IMG/VR virus record: IMGVR_UViG_3300037453_000171
Location: 1-64,000 of that record
Length of the DNA: 64,000 nt
Reading direction: 5' to 3' (one strand)
Source: a virus
Lineage: Duplodnaviria > Caudoviricetes
Every line of letters starts with the position of its first letter. Positions within the stretch are counted from its first letter, which is position 1. The translations under genes and the position numbers were made by a program. A model generated the notes under the pieces. It was given only the letters and a program-made list of their open reading frames with translations. It did no database searches and had not been told where the DNA came from. This document shows positions 24,867 through 48,470 of the stretch, one piece after another.

Positions 24867-24932
24867 TCATTGCCGAGAATCTTTAGATGGTGTCAGCCGG
24901 TGAACATTTTTGTTTTATTGGCTGATTATCAT

Positions 24933-24940
24933 TATCTTTG
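24933..24940 (+). promoter_or_regulatory. Bacteroidota-type -7 element (TATCTTTG)
   Basis: Immediately upstream of the tRNA start at 24944. Confidence 0.45.
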
Positions 24941-24980
24941 AATGGCCCCTTAGCTCAGTTGGTTAGAGCAGCGGACTCAT

Positions 24981-25457
24981 TAGTTCTTTGAAAGAAGAGA
25001 TTGTGTGCACCGGAGGAAACTCTGGATGTAGAACCTCCCTAATTCGGTGAAGACTAAAGATATATTATATGGCGGAATTGGCATACGGCAGTAGATTGAC
25101 GGAAGCACCCTAAAGTCGTCATTAACAAAGCTCTTGGGTTTGTAGGTTCGAATCCTACTATAATATATTTATGTTAATACCGAGCCAATGTTATAGAGAG
25201 TCTTGGGAAAGACCTTAATATATGTCCTATACCCGGACATAATCTTAGACAGTGTGTAGAGACTATACAGGAGGAACCTAAGTTGAAATTATTCTGAGGA
25301 TTTGAGTCAAGGCTCTCAGAGTATCTTGCAAGATTTCAATATGGTTAAGATAGAGTCCAGACCACAAACAAATTAGTGAATAATGCTCGCGTTAAAAACA
25401 GGGGCTATTGCTGCGAAGCTCCCCCGCTAATTTGGTAGTGAAAACTATAGTGGTACG
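24981..25457 (+). mobile_element. Group I intron (477 nt, no ORF) in tRNA-CAU
   Basis: 5' exon ends in U and the intron ends in G; P AATTCGGTGAA, Q AATACCGAGC, R GTAGAGACTA, S AAGATAGAGTCC; P3 CCTCC/GGAGG. Confidence 0.88.
25063..25165 (+). ncRNA. tRNA-shaped domain nested in P5 of the intron
   Basis: 7-bp TATTATA/TATAATA acceptor-like stem, Leu-like D arm TGGCGGAATTGGCATACG, perfect T arm GTAGG-TTCGAAT-CCTAC; aberrant anticodon arm; no CCA. Confidence 0.7.
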
Positions 25458-25554
25458 AATCCGTGGGTCGCAGGTTCAAGTCCTGCAGGGGCCACGAGGT
25501 TTTTACCTCATTCGTGGAGCATTCTGGCACGGCTGTGAAGTCCTGCCAGTTTTT

Positions 25555-25648
25555 GGTCTGATAAGTTAACAGGTGCTAAAACCGCGGTAGGAAGTTAGAG
25601 AAATCTATCTAGCCCCGCATGCCGGTTCGAGTCCGGCTCAGACCACCA
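25555..25648 (+). ncRNA. tRNA-like RNA with encoded CCA but no canonical anticodon loop
   Basis: Acceptor GGTCTGA/TCAGACC plus ACCA; T arm GCCGG-TTCGAGT-CCGGC; D-like arm; anticodon arm replaced by an irregular stem capped by TAGA-GAAA-TCTA. Confidence 0.7.
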
Positions 25649-25681
25649 ATATCTGAAGTATAATTATAAATCTTTGTACAT

Positions 25682-26428
25682 ATGAGTAGTATTCCTACTG
25701 GCAAGCACATCCTCACCGGTGTTTGCGAAATCAGTGTATCCTGTGGATACGATGGTGAGAACACGGCTGAAGGTATTCTCCTTACTATCGACGGGAGGAA
25801 TTATCTTGCTTATACCGATCCGGATGACGGATATCGTTCTTATGGTTGCTTCTTTCAGACTGATGAATACGATCAGAAGAATCCGTTCCCGTATCAGGAT
25901 GTCATCGTCGAGAACCGTCAGTGGGATGAGGAGGATGAAGATGGTTATTACCAGAAAGGCGATGAAGTAGTTATCTACAATGCCGAGGATCACAGCGAGA
26001 TCTTCCGCTGCGGTACCGACAGGAGTGATGACTATTATCCTTGCGGTTATTGGCATTATTATCCGCAGAATCTGCCTATCAACAAGCAAAAGAAGCAGGA
26101 AGAGGACGCCAAGAAGTTCGATGATGCACTGAATACCATGTATGAAGTGTTCGGACTTGAGAAACCCGAATGTCGTATTCCTACGGAGAAGAATCCTGAG
26201 ATTACGGAGTATGAGCAGCTGAAGCCTGGCTCTGATTCCGATGTTGATGCCTTGATTGCTACAATGGATCTCGATAAATGGGTCAGGTTCGAAGCAAAGA
26301 CTCGCGATGCGCTCAAGATCAAATTCCAGGAGGCATTCAAGCAGTTCATGGGTGATCAGTTCTGGCGCAAGAACACCATAGATCTGCTGTCTTTGTATGA
26401 TGCATTCAAAGATATTCTCGGATTATGA
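25682..26428 (+). CDS. Hypothetical acidic protein
   Basis: 248 aa; DPDDGYRS and DDYYP motifs. Confidence 0.75.
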   Translation: MSSIPTGKHILTGVCEISVSCGYDGENTAEGILLTIDGRNYLAYTDPDDGYRSYGCFFQTDEYDQKNPFPYQDVIVENRQWDEEDEDGYYQKGDEVVIYNAEDHSEIFRCGTDRSDDYYPCGYWHYYPQNLPINKQKKQEEDAKKFDDALNTMYEVFGLEKPECRIPTEKNPEITEYEQLKPGSDSDVDALIATMDLDKWVRFEAKTRDALKIKFQEAFKQFMGDQFWRKNTIDLLSLYDAFKDILGL

Positions 26429-27785: not shown

Positions 27786-30023
27786 ATGATATCAGGAGCT
27801 AATTCATCCGAGAAGGAATTCATTGAAGAACTTGAACAGTTCGGAGGTGATTCCGGAGCGCGTTCCACTGATTCTGTCATTGACAAATTGGAAGAACGCA
27901 GAAAGAATGCCATGCGTGGCGGCGTCAACTGTATTCCATTTCCATTCGAGAGATTCCGTTCCGAGATTCCAGGAATAGAACAGGAACAGTATGTCATCAT
28001 CACGGCATCGACCAAGGTCGGCAAGTGCTTCGGTAAAGGTACTCGTGTTCGTATGGCTGACAACACAATCAAAAACATTGAAGATATTCAAGTTGGCGAT
28101 TGGGTTATGTCACCAGATGACGAAAAGCCTAAACAGGTGCTTTCTGTTAACAGTGGACGAGAACAATTGTATCGAATTCACAGTGAAACTCACGATGACT
28201 TAATTGTAAATGAGAGTCATATTATGTATTTATACAAGCCTAAGCGTACCCATAGAAATGCAAGGTATTTTACTGAAACAATTGGCAATCTTATTGAAAA
28301 GCAAAGAACTGTCAAAACATTCAAGAAAGAATATCTTGCTGTAGCATCAGATGAATGCGATTTTGGATTCGATATTTCGCTTCCAATTGAACCGTATTTC
28401 TATGGTTTATGGCTTGGTGATGGTGCAACGCAAGGATGCGATATTACAACGGCTGATCCGGAAGTTGTCGAGTATCTCAGACAGTATGCCGATAGACTCG
28501 GAATGAAGGTTTCAGAATATACCCATAAATCTTGTGGAAGATATAATATCTGTCGTAAGTCACATAAAGATAAGCTTGGGTTTGAAAAGCGATTAGTCGT
28601 TGTAACTGGCAAGCAAAAAGAGCACATCAATCGCGATTATCTGAATGCTTCGGTTCAAGAAAGATATGAGCTTTTGGCTGGATTGATTGATTCCGACGGC
28701 TATCTTAATCATGCTGGAACCGGATACAAGATAACGATGAAATATCTGTCTTGTATCAAAGATATTCAGGAACTGGCTCGAAGTCTTGGTTTATCTGCTC
28801 ATGTAAATAAGAAATACAATTCTAAGTTAGACCGGTATTATTATATACTCAGTTTATACGGAAAGAATTGTACAAAGATTCCGGTTAAGATTCCAAGAAA
28901 GAAATGCCGTCTTACTTGTAAAGATTCGCATCATTTTTCGTTTTCAATTGAACCAATCGGCGAAGGAGATTATTATGGCTTGACTTTAGGCGGTAATCAT
29001 CTGTTCTTGCTTGAAGATTATACGGTTGTTCATAATTCCCAGCTCGCAAACTATCTGTATCTCTACAATGTACTGGATTATTGTTTCCTGCATCCTGAAA
29101 AATGCTCGTGTCACATAATCTATTTCGCACTGGAGGAATCCGTGCAGCGCGTCATCGAGAGATATATGTCCCATCTGCTGTGGAAGCTTGACGGAAAACG
29201 GTTTGCACCTGCTGATTTGCGTTCTACTTCCGTAGATTATCCTGTTCCGAAGGAAATCATAGATCTGCTCAAGTCCGAGAAATATCAGGAACGGTTCAGG
29301 TTCTTCGAGAAATGCGTTCAGTTCGATACGGAAAACACCAATCCGACAGGTATCCTTCGCACCTGTGAGGAGTATGCGAAAGCCGTGGGCACTTACAAGT
29401 CCAATACTATCACATCCCACTCCGACTGGACTAAGGAAGTAGAGGTATTTGATGATTATATCCAGGATGATCCGAATCATTACAAGATATGCATCATAGA
29501 TCATATTTCTTTGGTTGACAAGGAGCAGGGATTTGGCAAGAAGGAAACCATCGATAAGGTGTCGGAGTATTTCGTCAAGTATCTGCGCAATCGTTACAAG
29601 TATACCTGTGTTGTCATCCAGCAGCAGTCTGCGGAAGCGGAAGGTCTTGAAGCGATGAAGCAAAAGCGTATCGTTCCGAGCAATGCAACCGGTGGTGATT
29701 CGAAGTATACTTTCCGGGATTGTAATATCGCTCTTGGCTTGTTTGATCCGTCCAGATTAGGCTTATCCACTTACAAAGGCTATGACATAGCTGATGGGCT
29801 GAAAAGCTATGGACGGTTCATGAACGTCATTGCCAACCGTGACGGAGAGATGGGCGGTATATGTCCACTTTTCTTCGATGGTGCAGTGTGTAATTTCGAG
29901 GAACTGCCCAGACCTGATGACGTATCGGAAATCAGAAAATACTACGACAAGGTGAATGACCTGAAATCCTGGAAACAACAGAAGAAACTACAACAACTGT
30001 CCTTGTTTAACTTTTTCAAATGA
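27786..30023 (+). CDS. dnaB: DnaB-like replicative helicase (intein-containing)
   Basis: Walker A ASTKVGK|S, YFALEE, IIDHI, VVIQQ, IANRDG. Confidence 0.88.
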   Translation: MISGANSSEKEFIEELEQFGGDSGARSTDSVIDKLEERRKNAMRGGVNCIPFPFERFRSEIPGIEQEQYVIITASTKVGKCFGKGTRVRMADNTIKNIEDIQVGDWVMSPDDEKPKQVLSVNSGREQLYRIHSETHDDLIVNESHIMYLYKPKRTHRNARYFTETIGNLIEKQRTVKTFKKEYLAVASDECDFGFDISLPIEPYFYGLWLGDGATQGCDITTADPEVVEYLRQYADRLGMKVSEYTHKSCGRYNICRKSHKDKLGFEKRLVVVTGKQKEHINRDYLNASVQERYELLAGLIDSDGYLNHAGTGYKITMKYLSCIKDIQELARSLGLSAHVNKKYNSKLDRYYYILSLYGKNCTKIPVKIPRKKCRLTCKDSHHFSFSIEPIGEGDYYGLTLGGNHLFLLEDYTVVHNSQLANYLYLYNVLDYCFLHPEKCSCHIIYFALEESVQRVIERYMSHLLWKLDGKRFAPADLRSTSVDYPVPKEIIDLLKSEKYQERFRFFEKCVQFDTENTNPTGILRTCEEYAKAVGTYKSNTITSHSDWTKEVEVFDDYIQDDPNHYKICIIDHISLVDKEQGFGKKETIDKVSEYFVKYLRNRYKYTCVVIQQQSAEAEGLEAMKQKRIVPSNATGGDSKYTFRDCNIALGLFDPSRLGLSTYKGYDIADGLKSYGRFMNVIANRDGEMGGICPLFFDGAVCNFEELPRPDDVSEIRKYYDKVNDLKSWKQQKKLQQLSLFNFFK
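28026..29036 (+). mobile_element. Intein (337 aa) with LAGLIDADG endonuclease
   Basis: CFGKGT...ESH...VVHN followed by Ser; GLWLGDG and LAGLIDSDG motifs; inserted in Walker A. Confidence 0.93.
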
Positions 30024-46605: not shown

Positions 46606-46969
46606 TGCCGGATTTGATTTGACGGCAGTATCTGTTGAGGAGGACAGGAAACGGAATATCGTTACCTACCATACGGGTATTTCCGTATCGTTGCCCGAAG
46701 GATACTTCGGTCTGCTTTGCCCTCGTTCAAGCGTATATAAGCATCAGCTCCAACTGGCGAACGGATTAGGAATCATCGACCAAGGTTATCACGGAGAGTT
46801 GATCTTCAAGTATCGTATCGTTCAGCCACACATCAGCAGGTATCCGGTAGGAGAAAGGGTGGGACAATTGGTTGTCGTTCCTTACCCGGAATTGGAACTG
46901 GAAGAAGTGGATGAATTTGAAGATTCCGACAGGGGTACCGGAGGATTCGGATCTTCTGATAACAAGTAG
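46541..46969 (+). CDS. dut: dUTPase
   Basis: AGFDL, PRSS, GIIDQGYHGE, GERVGQ, RGTGGFGSS. Confidence 0.95.
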   Translation: MKLKFKKLTPDAVMPMKAHPSDAGFDLTAVSVEEDRKRNIVTYHTGISVSLPEGYFGLLCPRSSVYKHQLQLANGLGIIDQGYHGELIFKYRIVQPHISRYPVGERVGQLVVVPYPELELEEVDEFEDSDRGTGGFGSSDNK

Positions 46970-48186
46970 TCTATTACTCTGCGATTAGCGACATCCACGG
47001 CTTCCTGATTAAACTTGACATAAATGAGAGTGGTCCTGTTGCCTGACGAATGGCCCAGTGCCTGCGAGATAACATCGAGGGAGATGCCTACTTCATAAGC
47101 AAAGGTAGCCCAGCAATGACGAGCATAGTATGTGGAGATTTCCGGGATGACCGGCGTAATGGTTTTTAACAGTCGTGGTGTACCAAATAAATCCTCCGGA
47201 TCTGGAACCATCTCCCATCTTACGTCTCCTATCTCCTTCAGCTTGTCGTTCATCTCGTGTACGAAATTCTTGTAGTGCTTGCAATGGTCCATTGCCTCCA
47301 GCAGATACCGCTCTCCTCTGTATTTTTTCAGCAGTTCCTCAGCCTCCGGTTCAATCTTGATTGAATATTTCTTATGTGTCTTCTCCCGGATATATTCGAG
47401 CCTACCATTAACAATTCGTTTCTCACTAGCCAACAACAGGTCTTTCGAGTTTATTCCGATGAGATAGAACATGAGGAGGAAATAGTCGCGATACCTGCAT
47501 AGATTTGCTGGTGCCGGATGGTTGAGGAACTTCCTGAAGATTTCTATGGACACGGACCGTTTCTTCGTCGGTTCATGCTTGATCGAGAAGTTCTCGAACG
47601 GATATGTCGATACGGCTCCGGTGTGTTTTGCGTAATTGCACACAGCCCGGAGACTGCGGAGATAGATGGCCCTTCCGTTTACCCCCTGGGTCCTCGCCAG
47701 AAACCTTTCAAACTGATGCAACCATTTAAGATTTATGTCTTCCATCTTCAGCGTCTTGCCTCCGAACGCAAGAACCTTCGAGAGCGTAGTCCTGTAGATT
47801 TCTTTCGTTCCTTCCTTGATATCCCGGACAAGATATTCCGTAAACATATCTGATACGAGATGAACTGGCTTGACAACTTTCTTTTCCGCTATCGCCTGCT
47901 TGATTTGCGGAGCAGTCATAGAATCGAATCTATCCGATCTATCAGGATCTATTGATAGATACGCAATAGATCGATCGACAGAAGATTTCTTCTCCGCAAG
48001 CCTTGCGTTCAAGGCGTCGGAACCAGGAACGCCCTTGATATGATTGCCATCCCATTCATTCGGAGCCACACGGATACCGGTAGGAATCATAGCCGTTGTC
48101 CGGTTATGATAGATGGTGATGACGATGCTGCCTTTCCCGTCTTTCGCTCTACCGCGAAGATCCAGGTAAAACCTTGTTGTTGCCAT
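46882..48186 (-). CDS. int: Tyrosine integrase (Bacteroidota type, with arm-binding and SAM-like domains)
   Basis: MATTRFYLD arm-binding N-terminus; catalytic region GINSKDL, REKT, YYARHCWAT, LGH, TLIY. Confidence 0.9.
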   Translation of the reverse strand: MATTRFYLDLRGRAKDGKGSIVITIYHNRTTAMIPTGIRVAPNEWDGNHIKGVPGSDALNARLAEKKSSVDRSIAYLSIDPDRSDRFDSMTAPQIKQAIAEKKVVKPVHLVSDMFTEYLVRDIKEGTKEIYRTTLSKVLAFGGKTLKMEDINLKWLHQFERFLARTQGVNGRAIYLRSLRAVCNYAKHTGAVSTYPFENFSIKHEPTKKRSVSIEIFRKFLNHPAPANLCRYRDYFLLMFYLIGINSKDLLLASEKRIVNGRLEYIREKTHKKYSIKIEPEAEELLKKYRGERYLLEAMDHCKHYKNFVHEMNDKLKEIGDVRWEMVPDPEDLFGTPRLLKTITPVIPEISTYYARHCWATFAYEVGISLDVISQALGHSSGNRTTLIYVKFNQEAVDVANRRVIDYLLSEDPNPPVPLSESSNSSTSSSSNSG

Positions 48187-48217
48187 GTTGAAGTATTTAC
48201 TACAAATATATGAATTT

Positions 48218-48470
48218 GTCTGCATACGATTCCGCATAGCGAATTATAGATGTAGAATAGCGATTTTAAAGGCAAAAACAAAAAGGCTTCAAAAATCCTT
48301 GCGGGAGATTGAAGCCAATCAATTGAAAATTAAAGAGTTACTTATGTGGAGATAAGGGGATTCGAACCCCTGACCCCCTGCTTGCAAAGCAGTAGATTTC
48401 TCCGCTTAATCACATGACAGTCACATAAATAGATATGAAAGAAAATAATTCTGCAAATGATTCTGCAAAA
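48218..48470. other. attP: tRNA-Ala(UGC) 3' half as core (48347-48392, minus strand) flanked by arm repeats
   Basis: Reverse complement CTGCTTTGCAAGCAGGGGGTCAGGGGTTCGAATCCCCTTATCTCCA with no 5' half; arm repeats gtctgcatacgattccgcatag (48218) and ttctgcaaatgattctgcaaaa (48449). Confidence 0.8.

Follow-up and report, generated by a model that had tools for sequence, protein, structure and literature searches.

Non-decoding tRNA look-alikes are a long-established component of phage tRNA clusters. The small stable RNAs C and D of phage T4 (also called species 1 and 2) are examples; encoded among the tRNA genes of T4, these RNAs of 119-139 nt do not decode, carry tRNA-like termini and mature together with the tRNAs. 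YrlA-type Y RNAs are built differently, in that both ends of the RNA lie within the Ro-binding stem and the acceptor-like stem is closed. Two additional points of reference are the tRNA-like domain of tmRNA and the 3' junction of the class II variable arm, and we have used the geometry of both for the structural comparisons made below.

Some published reports also bear on the element described here. An RNA that consists only of a tRNA-like domain (TLD) has been reported from a phage, and a similar molecule inhibits tmRNA, perhaps because it titrates SmpB (PMC4131195). In the Crassvirales, both low-scoring tRNA-like 'pseudogenes' and possible undetected non-canonical tRNAs have been discussed (PMC7886860; bioRxiv 10.64898/2026.08.21.746148).

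This report concerns a 94-nt tRNA-shaped element with an encoded CCA in a rumen phage from the same order. A sequence-only reading had marked it as a tRNA mimic that lacks an anticodon loop, and the boundaries given there, G25555 to A25648 on the + strand, are exact.

The phage and the locus

The window, i.e., the whole stretch of 64,000 nt that was analysed, comprises bases 1-64000 of a complete 99,880-bp virus genome with direct terminal repeats. The virus is a crAss-like phage. It is marked as such by its large terminase, which has an intein (27786-30023), by the closest GenBank match to the region, which is crAss-like phage cr60_1, and by a bovine gut metagenome, which is the only run containing most of the stretch. 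TAnnTTTG boxes, which we take to be the Bacteroidota promoter consensus, together with a Bacteroidota-style tyrosine integrase, point to a Bacteroidota host. The standard code reads the genome well, many of the ORFs end in TAG and stop-codon recoding is not evident in the genome. Single TAG codons separate in-frame minus-strand ORFs at genome positions 66262-66264 (769 + 1845 aa) and 76898-76900 (245 + 1614 aa, beyond the window); these could reflect either chance or programmed read-through.

A Logan contig of 18,342 nt from DNA run X1, which is probably the source sample, contains positions 25461-25700 without any difference, and this exact copy means that the 94-nt element is not an artefact of one assembler. 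Three RNA runs (X2, X6 and X13) have zero depth on the element and likewise on the unique flanks of the phage. The deep cover in these runs falls on the conserved group I intron cores of many related introns. Since there is no depth on the unique flanks either, the three runs are silent about expression of the element.

The element lies in a gene-free stretch of 815 nt (24867 to 25681) that consists of a promoter box, a split tRNA-Met, two hairpins and the element itself, after which an ORF begins. The promoter-like motif is of the Bacteroidota type (TTTG ... TATCTTTG, 24909..24940, + strand), as judged from the sequence against this consensus, and is located 3 nt upstream of the tRNA-Met. TAnnTTTG boxes are also present upstream of the tRNA or the ORF in four related loci (L003, L032, L034 and L045). 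No promoter belonging to the element itself was seen in the flanking sequence or in a sigma-70 scan; this sigma-70/terminator scan flagged nothing at the element, and its loop limit passes over the hairpin immediately upstream. The tRNA-Met promoter motif is the likely source of any transcript that reaches the element.

The tRNA-Met(CAU) gene (24944..25494, + strand; Rfam and ARAGORN -i) is split into exons at 24944-24980 and 25458-25494 by a group I intron of 477 nt (24981-25457). The intron interrupts the gene after U36, has no endonuclease ORF and matches Rfam Intron_gpI with 41.5 bits (E 6.6e-9). Rumen metatranscriptome contigs contain many related intron cores, and the joints in these contigs skip peripheral inserts (e.g., from 25057 to 25170). 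The CCA of the tRNA-Met itself is disrupted and the gene ends in ACGA, because a 151-nt lineage-specific insertion (25496..25646, + strand), which consists of two hairpins and the 94-nt element, interrupts the CCA end. The limits of the insertion come from the gap arithmetic and from the flank of two related loci, both of which are given below. CCAC occurs at both junctions, and the CCA of the element re-creates the original 3' junction of the tRNA-Met.

As predicted by folding, a small hairpin, GAGG-TTTTTA-CCTC (25496..25509, + strand), forms the left end of the insertion. It is followed by a hairpin with the shape of an intrinsic terminator, CTGGCA...TGCCAG with a GUGA cap and a run of five T residues at 25550-25554 (25524..25554 in all, + strand), which abuts the element, its last base, 25554, directly preceding 25555. 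The apex of this second hairpin, 16 nt (ACGGCTGTGAAGTCCT) including the GUGA cap, is identical in the window, in the related loci L003 and L004 and in L036, and the outer stems are wholly different. The other copies are at L003:3662-3699 and L036:10685-10722, and in two of the three phages the hairpin directly precedes a tRNA or a tRNA look-alike.

The downstream ORF of 248 aa (25682..26428, + strand, from the ORF list) begins 33 nt past the element. It has 45 homologues, and the protein always follows the tRNA slot. No match was found in Pfam, in PHROGs or among PDB sequences, Foldseek against the PDB returned nothing at E <= 0.001, and the matches in BFVD are only to uncharacterised phage proteins. 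The N-terminal domain is beta-rich and confidently predicted (mean pLDDT 82.6). The best PDB match found by VIA-align is the N-terminal domain of Rqc2/RqcH (Z 5.2 and 4.4, weak). This domain is a tRNA-binding domain in Rqc2/RqcH, and the likeness, at Z 5.2, is too weak to rely on. The peptidyl-tRNA-hydrolase-2-like family PF01981 has no match in the entire 99,880-bp genome, including the region beside the element.

Structure of the element and its capacity to decode

The upper half of the element is that of a normal tRNA (evidence from sequence, fold and the Rfam tRNA model). The acceptor stem, GGTCTGA/TCAGACC (25555..25561 with 25638-25644), has 7/7 Watson-Crick pairs and is followed by discriminator A25645 and by CCA at 25646-25648. 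The T arm, GCCGG-TTCGAGT-CCGGC (25621..25637), has 5/5 pairs and a consensus T loop. Thus, both the perfect acceptor stem with its encoded ACCA and the perfect T arm of the sequence-only reading are confirmed. The Rfam alignment places a D arm at 25564..25583; its stem consists of three base pairs (GTT/AAC) and one A.C mismatch, and its loop of 12 nt holds A14, A15 and G18G19. The unconstrained minimum free energy (MFE) structure favours a different 3-bp hairpin (GGU/ACC) in the D region. The core bases are complete, namely U8, A14, A15 with U48, G18G19, G53, U54-U55-C56, A58 and C61.

An irregular arm of 35 nt (25584..25618, + strand; MFE) takes the position of the anticodon arm. In the MFE structure, a GCGG/CCGC helix forms its base, a UA bulge and internal loops interrupt the helix further up, and GAAA (25600-25603) caps it. 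The whole fold has an MFE of -33.8 kcal/mol (z -3.71), which was equalled by 0 of 200 shuffles. The arm alone is less exceptional; at -9.3 kcal/mol its z is only -1.55, and 16 of 200 shuffles (8%) fold equally well. Its four basal pairs are firm, with pair probabilities of about 0.97, and the higher pairs have values of 0.55-0.76. The long irregular helix with a GAAA cap, as first described, is therefore where MFE folding puts it, although its stability as an arm is not distinguished from that of shuffled sequence. Inspection by eye found no convincing K-turn or loop-E motif in the arm, and 10-11-mers complementary to the arm, which might have suggested an antisense role, occur in the genome only at chance level.

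The linkers are also unusual. Two nucleotides (AU, 25619-25620) connect the arm to the T stem, and 0-1 nt connects it to the D stem. With a variable region of just 2 nt, the core is not that of a standard cloverleaf, and the two short linkers place the junction nearer to that of the tmRNA tRNA-like domain, or to the 3' side of a class II variable arm, than to a cloverleaf.

The element resembles tRNA beyond chance, as judged by Rfam RF00005. It scores 29.2 bits, where the cut-off is 29, with an E-value of 5.7e-4 locally and of 1.9e-5 over the whole genome, and it passes the cut-off only in a local alignment, in which the anticodon arm is left out as an insert of 30 nt. Among the features expected of a tRNA, it has the 7-bp acceptor stem with discriminator and CCA, the 5-bp T arm, the D arm with G18G19 and the Rfam score; it lacks the 5-bp anticodon stem with a 7-nt loop containing U33 and an anticodon, and it has 2 nt in place of a variable region of at least 4 nt. 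ARAGORN with default settings called no tRNA anywhere in the window, including at the element. With -ps90 it reported a poor class II 'Tyr(gta)' at the element, with only three good anticodon-stem pairs and with G33 rather than U33. The tRNA-Sec model RF01852 scored 23.1 bits against a cut-off of 47, and a UCA anticodon loop is absent. Rfam families other than tRNA had no match at the element with E up to 10. A group I intron does not account for the arm; the extra sequence amounts to only about 18 nt, and the Intron_gpI match is in the neighbouring tRNA-Met.

We also deleted, one at a time, all internal stretches of 5-30 nt that lie between positions 22 and 66 of the element, and ran ARAGORN with default settings on the resulting 741 variants. 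Three of them were called. The three are neighbouring deletions, all are reported as 'Asp(AUC)', which is an implausible anticodon, and all are cut 5' of the loop at a non-canonical site. The suggestion that the element could be a pre-tRNA with an unusual insertion is thus unsupported and unlikely. The claim that the RNA is non-decoding stands, in that no 7-nt anticodon loop can be drawn by ARAGORN, by Rfam or with -ps90; a canonical alternative cloverleaf, sought with ARAGORN and Rfam as a refutation, was not found. The conclusion that the element is non-decoding is supported.

Relatives of the element and history of the insertion

Homologues of the element were sought in several collections. 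Comparison by blastn with 50,697 GenBank phage records gave only chance T-arm matches. Four exact patterns run against IMG/VR, including the T arm plus acceptor, the arm, and a gapped pattern from the D loop to the T loop, found no homologue. A 19-mer from the D arm had three chance matches in coding DNA of JGI metagenomes and no homologue there, and two patterns of T arm plus acceptor in GTDB genomes gave none and then three irrelevant matches. The exact-pattern scans are blind to relatives below about 90-95% identity, and since they overlook such diverged relatives, the absence of a homologue is not proven. The Rfam tRNA model picked out nothing like the element when it was run on seven loci and 15 phage records from relatives. 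When a covariance model was derived from the element and run over 513 kb of related loci, it found only ordinary tRNAs. Its top scores (29.1 and 27.1 bits) are for the tRNA-Met of the same slot in relatives, the other tRNAs scoring 21.5 bits or less, and the GCGG that starts the anticodon stem is common to the element and the tRNA-Met of the relatives. Judged from these comparisons, the element is a singleton, seen only in a single genome among the collections searched.

The relatives make the history of the slot fairly clear. Loci L003 and L004, found via the terminase (71-73% identity), have an intronless tRNA-Met with CCA, and a terminator-shaped hairpin and a T-run precede this tRNA just as they precede the element in the window. 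Loci found via the downstream ORF (L032 and L033 at 59% identity and L045 at 46%) have the order promoter, intronless tRNA-Met, 25-33 nt, ORF. The tRNA of L032 and L033 is the same as the spliced tRNA-Met of the window, and the 33 nt that follow ACCA are almost identical between their tRNA-Met and the 94-nt element. Other loci with an ORF homologue have a hammerhead or nothing upstream instead of a tRNA-Met. A hammerhead lies immediately upstream of the homologue at L034:2490-2560, as seen by eye, and in the same early region of relatives Rfam matches to pistol and RAGATH-1 hammerhead ribozymes were noted, at L003:2305-2369, L009:612-674, L009:1024-1089 and L004:841-911.

Nearer relatives are represented by two contigs from other samples, ENA ERZ27257204 and ERZ27257207, in which the neighbouring protein shares a 90%-identity cluster with that of the window (98% identical in one of them). 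These contigs, which were judged from gene coordinates alone, have a gap of 187 nt where the window has 815. The smaller gap equals 77 nt of spacer, 77 nt of tRNA with CCA and 33 nt, and the difference, 815 - 187 = 628, equals 477 + 151. From these coordinates we infer that the near relatives carry only an intronless tRNA-Met, with neither the intron nor the insertion. The two gap lengths, together with the flank in L032 and L033, make the element with its two hairpins a 151-nt insertion in the tRNA-Met CCA. On this comparative evidence, the insertion is recent and lineage-specific, and the relatives carry a plain tRNA-Met at the slot.

As for the element itself, it differs from the local tRNA-Met at three acceptor pairs and one T-stem pair, and the differences always affect both sides of the stem (a comparison made partly by eye). 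Two-sided changes of this kind argue that the stems reflect a long history under structural selection rather than a freshly damaged copy. The check for homologues and covariation had a divided outcome; it produced no homologue, and the stem changes relative to tRNA-Met are compensated.

The tRNA model has only two other matches in the whole genome. One is a module nested inside the tRNA-Met intron (25063-25166, 30.8 bits with the Rfam tRNA model), which belongs to a second group of tRNA-shaped elements, referred to here as family A. In cr60_1, the family A element stands alone (L001:2994-3096) and adjoins a CUA suppressor tRNA. The central 70 nt are about 92% identical between the window and cr60_1, and the acceptor and T stems are wholly different and yet paired. 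The family A core is present in at least 29 IMG/VR contigs (L052-L080), where it also stands alone, just 5' of a CUA suppressor tRNA. Across these contigs the T stem takes four different forms and the acceptor stem at least three, with covariation in both, and a loop region of 15 nt is invariant. Family A has no 7-nt anticodon loop and no CCA. The nested form is present in an RNA contig from a sheep gut metatranscriptome. The conservation and covariation of family A mean that conserved non-decoding tRNA-shaped RNAs with a long arm are real in this phage order. The terminase gene of cr60_1 (L001:3542-5461) has seven in-frame stops in table 11 and is open with TAG as a Gln codon, in keeping with the CUA tRNA beside it.

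The other match (48347-48419, - strand; Rfam tRNA) combines a fully paired T arm and a regular anticodon arm (UGC) with three mismatches in the acceptor stem, and its 3' end matches the tmRNA model. It adjoins a tyrosine integrase gene (46882-48237, - strand) with Arm-DNA-bind_5, Phage_int_SAM_5 and Phage_integrase domains. It is likely a phage attachment site (attP) that contains part of a host tRNA or tmRNA gene, and the likely attP and the integrase imply a temperate crAss-like phage.

An additional long-insert tRNA body was observed elsewhere. The 118-nt body at L047:201-318 (- strand; G010:49675-49792) has 64 AT-rich nt for its anticodon arm. It is located in a cr56_1-like region annotated as DNA polymerase and is absent in cr60_1; it may be part of an intron.

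Possible roles of the element and comparison with known systems

The reading that we prefer, tentatively and at somewhat less than even odds, is that the element is a non-decoding tRNA-shaped RNA that could be processed by RNase P and that perhaps has a role in trans. It would keep the full acceptor/T-arm stack, the elbow and the CCA, and one sealed arm would replace both the anticodon stem-loop and the variable loop. In the proposed scheme, the 151-nt cassette (the small hairpin, the terminator-like hairpin and the element) recombined into the CCA end of the phage tRNA-Met, and this entry would have put the element in the 'tRNA slot', 33 nt before the next gene. Transcription that starts at the tRNA-Met promoter and continues past the hairpin would yield RNAs that contain the element. 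RNase P would then cleave between 25554 and 25555, and the 3'-end machinery would trim the transcript to the CCA; both steps would be possible on the element because both need the top half only. The products would be a stable 94-nt RNA and, separated from each other, the upstream RNAs and the downstream mRNA, the start of which the element would mark. The freed RNA could titrate a protein that binds the top half of tRNA; candidates are SmpB, a defence nuclease or a synthetase that does not need the anticodon, such as LeuRS. A decoy for defence nucleases, EF-Tu, synthetases or RelA, as put forward in the sequence-only reading, would be a candidate role of the same sort. The slot, which is exactly where relatives have a real tRNA and has the same 33-nt spacer, favours a functional module, as do the intact top half and core with their better-than-chance match to the tRNA model, the two-sided stem changes and a 3' junction geometry shared with the tmRNA tRNA-like domain and with class II variable arms. 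Conserved family A in the crAss-like phages is a precedent, and so is the TLD-only phage RNA (PMC4131195). Against a functional element are its orphan status, an arm that does not exceed shuffled sequence, the terminator shape upstream and the fact that no promoter of its own was seen. We consider it unlikely that the fuller version holds, in which the element is a selected tRNA top half with a sealed arm, the 151-nt cassette targets tRNA CCA ends, the RNA acts in trans on SmpB, LeuRS or a defence nuclease and the element is a member of an undescribed crAss-like class.

The same weaknesses (an orphan, behind a terminator-like hairpin, with an arm no better than chance) make it nearly as likely as the preferred reading that the element is a neutral relic. 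It would then be a dead tRNA gene with a shortened variable loop and with an anticodon loop that has been exchanged or has grown by about 18 nt; recombination at a tRNA hotspot would have brought it in recently, and the genome would not yet have lost it. Its absence from all of the relatives examined agrees with this, as do the terminator-like hairpin upstream, the 8% of shuffles that match the fold of the arm, and the mosaic nature of the site, where the tRNA-Met and the spacer are nearly identical to those of L032 and the flanking protein is only 59% identical. The covariance model scores highest on the same-slot tRNA-Met, with which the element has the GCGG anticodon-stem start in common, and low-scoring tRNA pseudogenes are described in the Crassvirales (bioRxiv 10.64898/2026.08.21.746148). 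Against a relic are the restriction of both lesions to the lower half, the lack of any defect over about 55 nt of stem, loop and core positions, compensated stem differences from tRNA-Met, a retained CCA and tidy junctions with linkers of 0-1 nt and 2 nt. The earlier argument that an intact top half speaks against decay consequently holds only in part. The top half is indeed free of defects, but the element is a singleton in a lineage-specific insertion, its arm is not significantly stable and it lies behind a terminator-shaped hairpin.

Two other explanations are much less probable. The element could be a DNA-level feature, i.e., a target site, or a scar left by recombination or integration, in which tRNA sequence is merely kept, for example as a by-product of co-conversion during intron homing. 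CCAC microhomology is present at both junctions, within the CCA, the intron and the cassette are both missing in near relatives and may have come together, and the tRNA/tmRNA-like fragment beside the tyrosine integrase (48347-48419) indicates that tRNA-derived DNA sites do occur in this genome. However, att-type fragments retain one tRNA end, as illustrated by the three acceptor mismatches of the 48347 element, whereas in the 94-nt element the two acceptor strands pair without a fault, a property not required of a DNA site; we regard this explanation as very unlikely. Slightly less probable still is that the element is a genuine tRNA interrupted by a small, unconventional intervening sequence that some activity removes, one candidate product being a CUA-reading suppressor. 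CTA occurs twice in the arm, and by eye an 18-nt deletion leaves 76 nt with the loop ATCTAGC. The adjacent tRNA-Met is itself split by an intron, long-insert tRNA bodies exist elsewhere in crAss-like genomes (L047), and undetected non-canonical suppressors have been proposed for crAss-like phages (PMC7886860; bioRxiv 10.64898/2026.08.21.746148). Yet the three callable deletions among 741 all gave Asp(AUC) and were cut 5' of the loop, CUA reading requires a U.C stem mismatch and a 2-nt variable loop, and the insert is far below the size of a group I intron. Moreover, the standard code fits the genome with TAG as a stop, so that no need for a suppressor is evident, and no RNA ligase or splicing enzyme was found among the 32 ORFs scanned against PHROGs or Pfam.

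How does the element compare with what has been described? Like the canonical tRNAs of RF00005, it has a 7-bp acceptor stem, a 5-bp T stem with a TTCGAGT loop, G18G19, U8/A14, the discriminator and CCA. Canonical tRNAs differ from it in having a 5-bp anticodon stem with a 7-nt loop and a variable region of 4-5 nt or more rather than 2 nt; the element has a 35-nt sealed arm and is not called by ARAGORN at default settings. The tRNA-like domain of tmRNA and the TLD-only RNA of mycobacteriophage DS6A, which like the element is encoded by a phage, also combine an acceptor stem, T arm and CCA with the absence of an anticodon stem-loop (PMC4131195). In the tmRNA domain, as in the element, a helix exits the core at the anticodon-arm site and returns 2 nt before the T stem. 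In contrast to tmRNA, the element has U3-A70 where the alanine pair G3.U70 would be, could form a paired D stem and has no tag reading frame. The tmRNA model RF00023 has no match at the element in a genome search with E up to 10, its only match being at 48344-48378, and ARAGORN -m found no tmRNA.

T4 RNAs C and D and the element are non-decoding small RNAs of phages that differ in size; they are likened here by description, and a sequence relation is not expected. YrlA-type Y RNAs, which are also present in phages, have a tRNA-like module with no anticodon (PMC4201824), and the element differs from YrlA in having free acceptor ends with CCA.

If the RNA is made and processed, it would be a minimal 94-nt example of such molecules from the most abundant phage order of the gut and rumen. 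The ancestral state of the locus is clear, a plain tRNA-Met, and the value of the element is that the entry of such a sequence into a genome is documented, through insertion at a tRNA CCA end. It also points to family A, which is conserved, lies nearby and is the better experimental target. Family A is like the element in its acceptor stem, its D arm with GG, the long irregular arm in place of the anticodon stem-loop and the perfect T arm, and both are found within this phage order and, in the window, within a single 0.8-kb region. They are unlike in that the sequences are unrelated and that family A has a Leu-like D arm, a variable region of 5-6 nt and no encoded CCA; and where the element is a singleton, family A is represented in at least 29 contigs with covarying stems.
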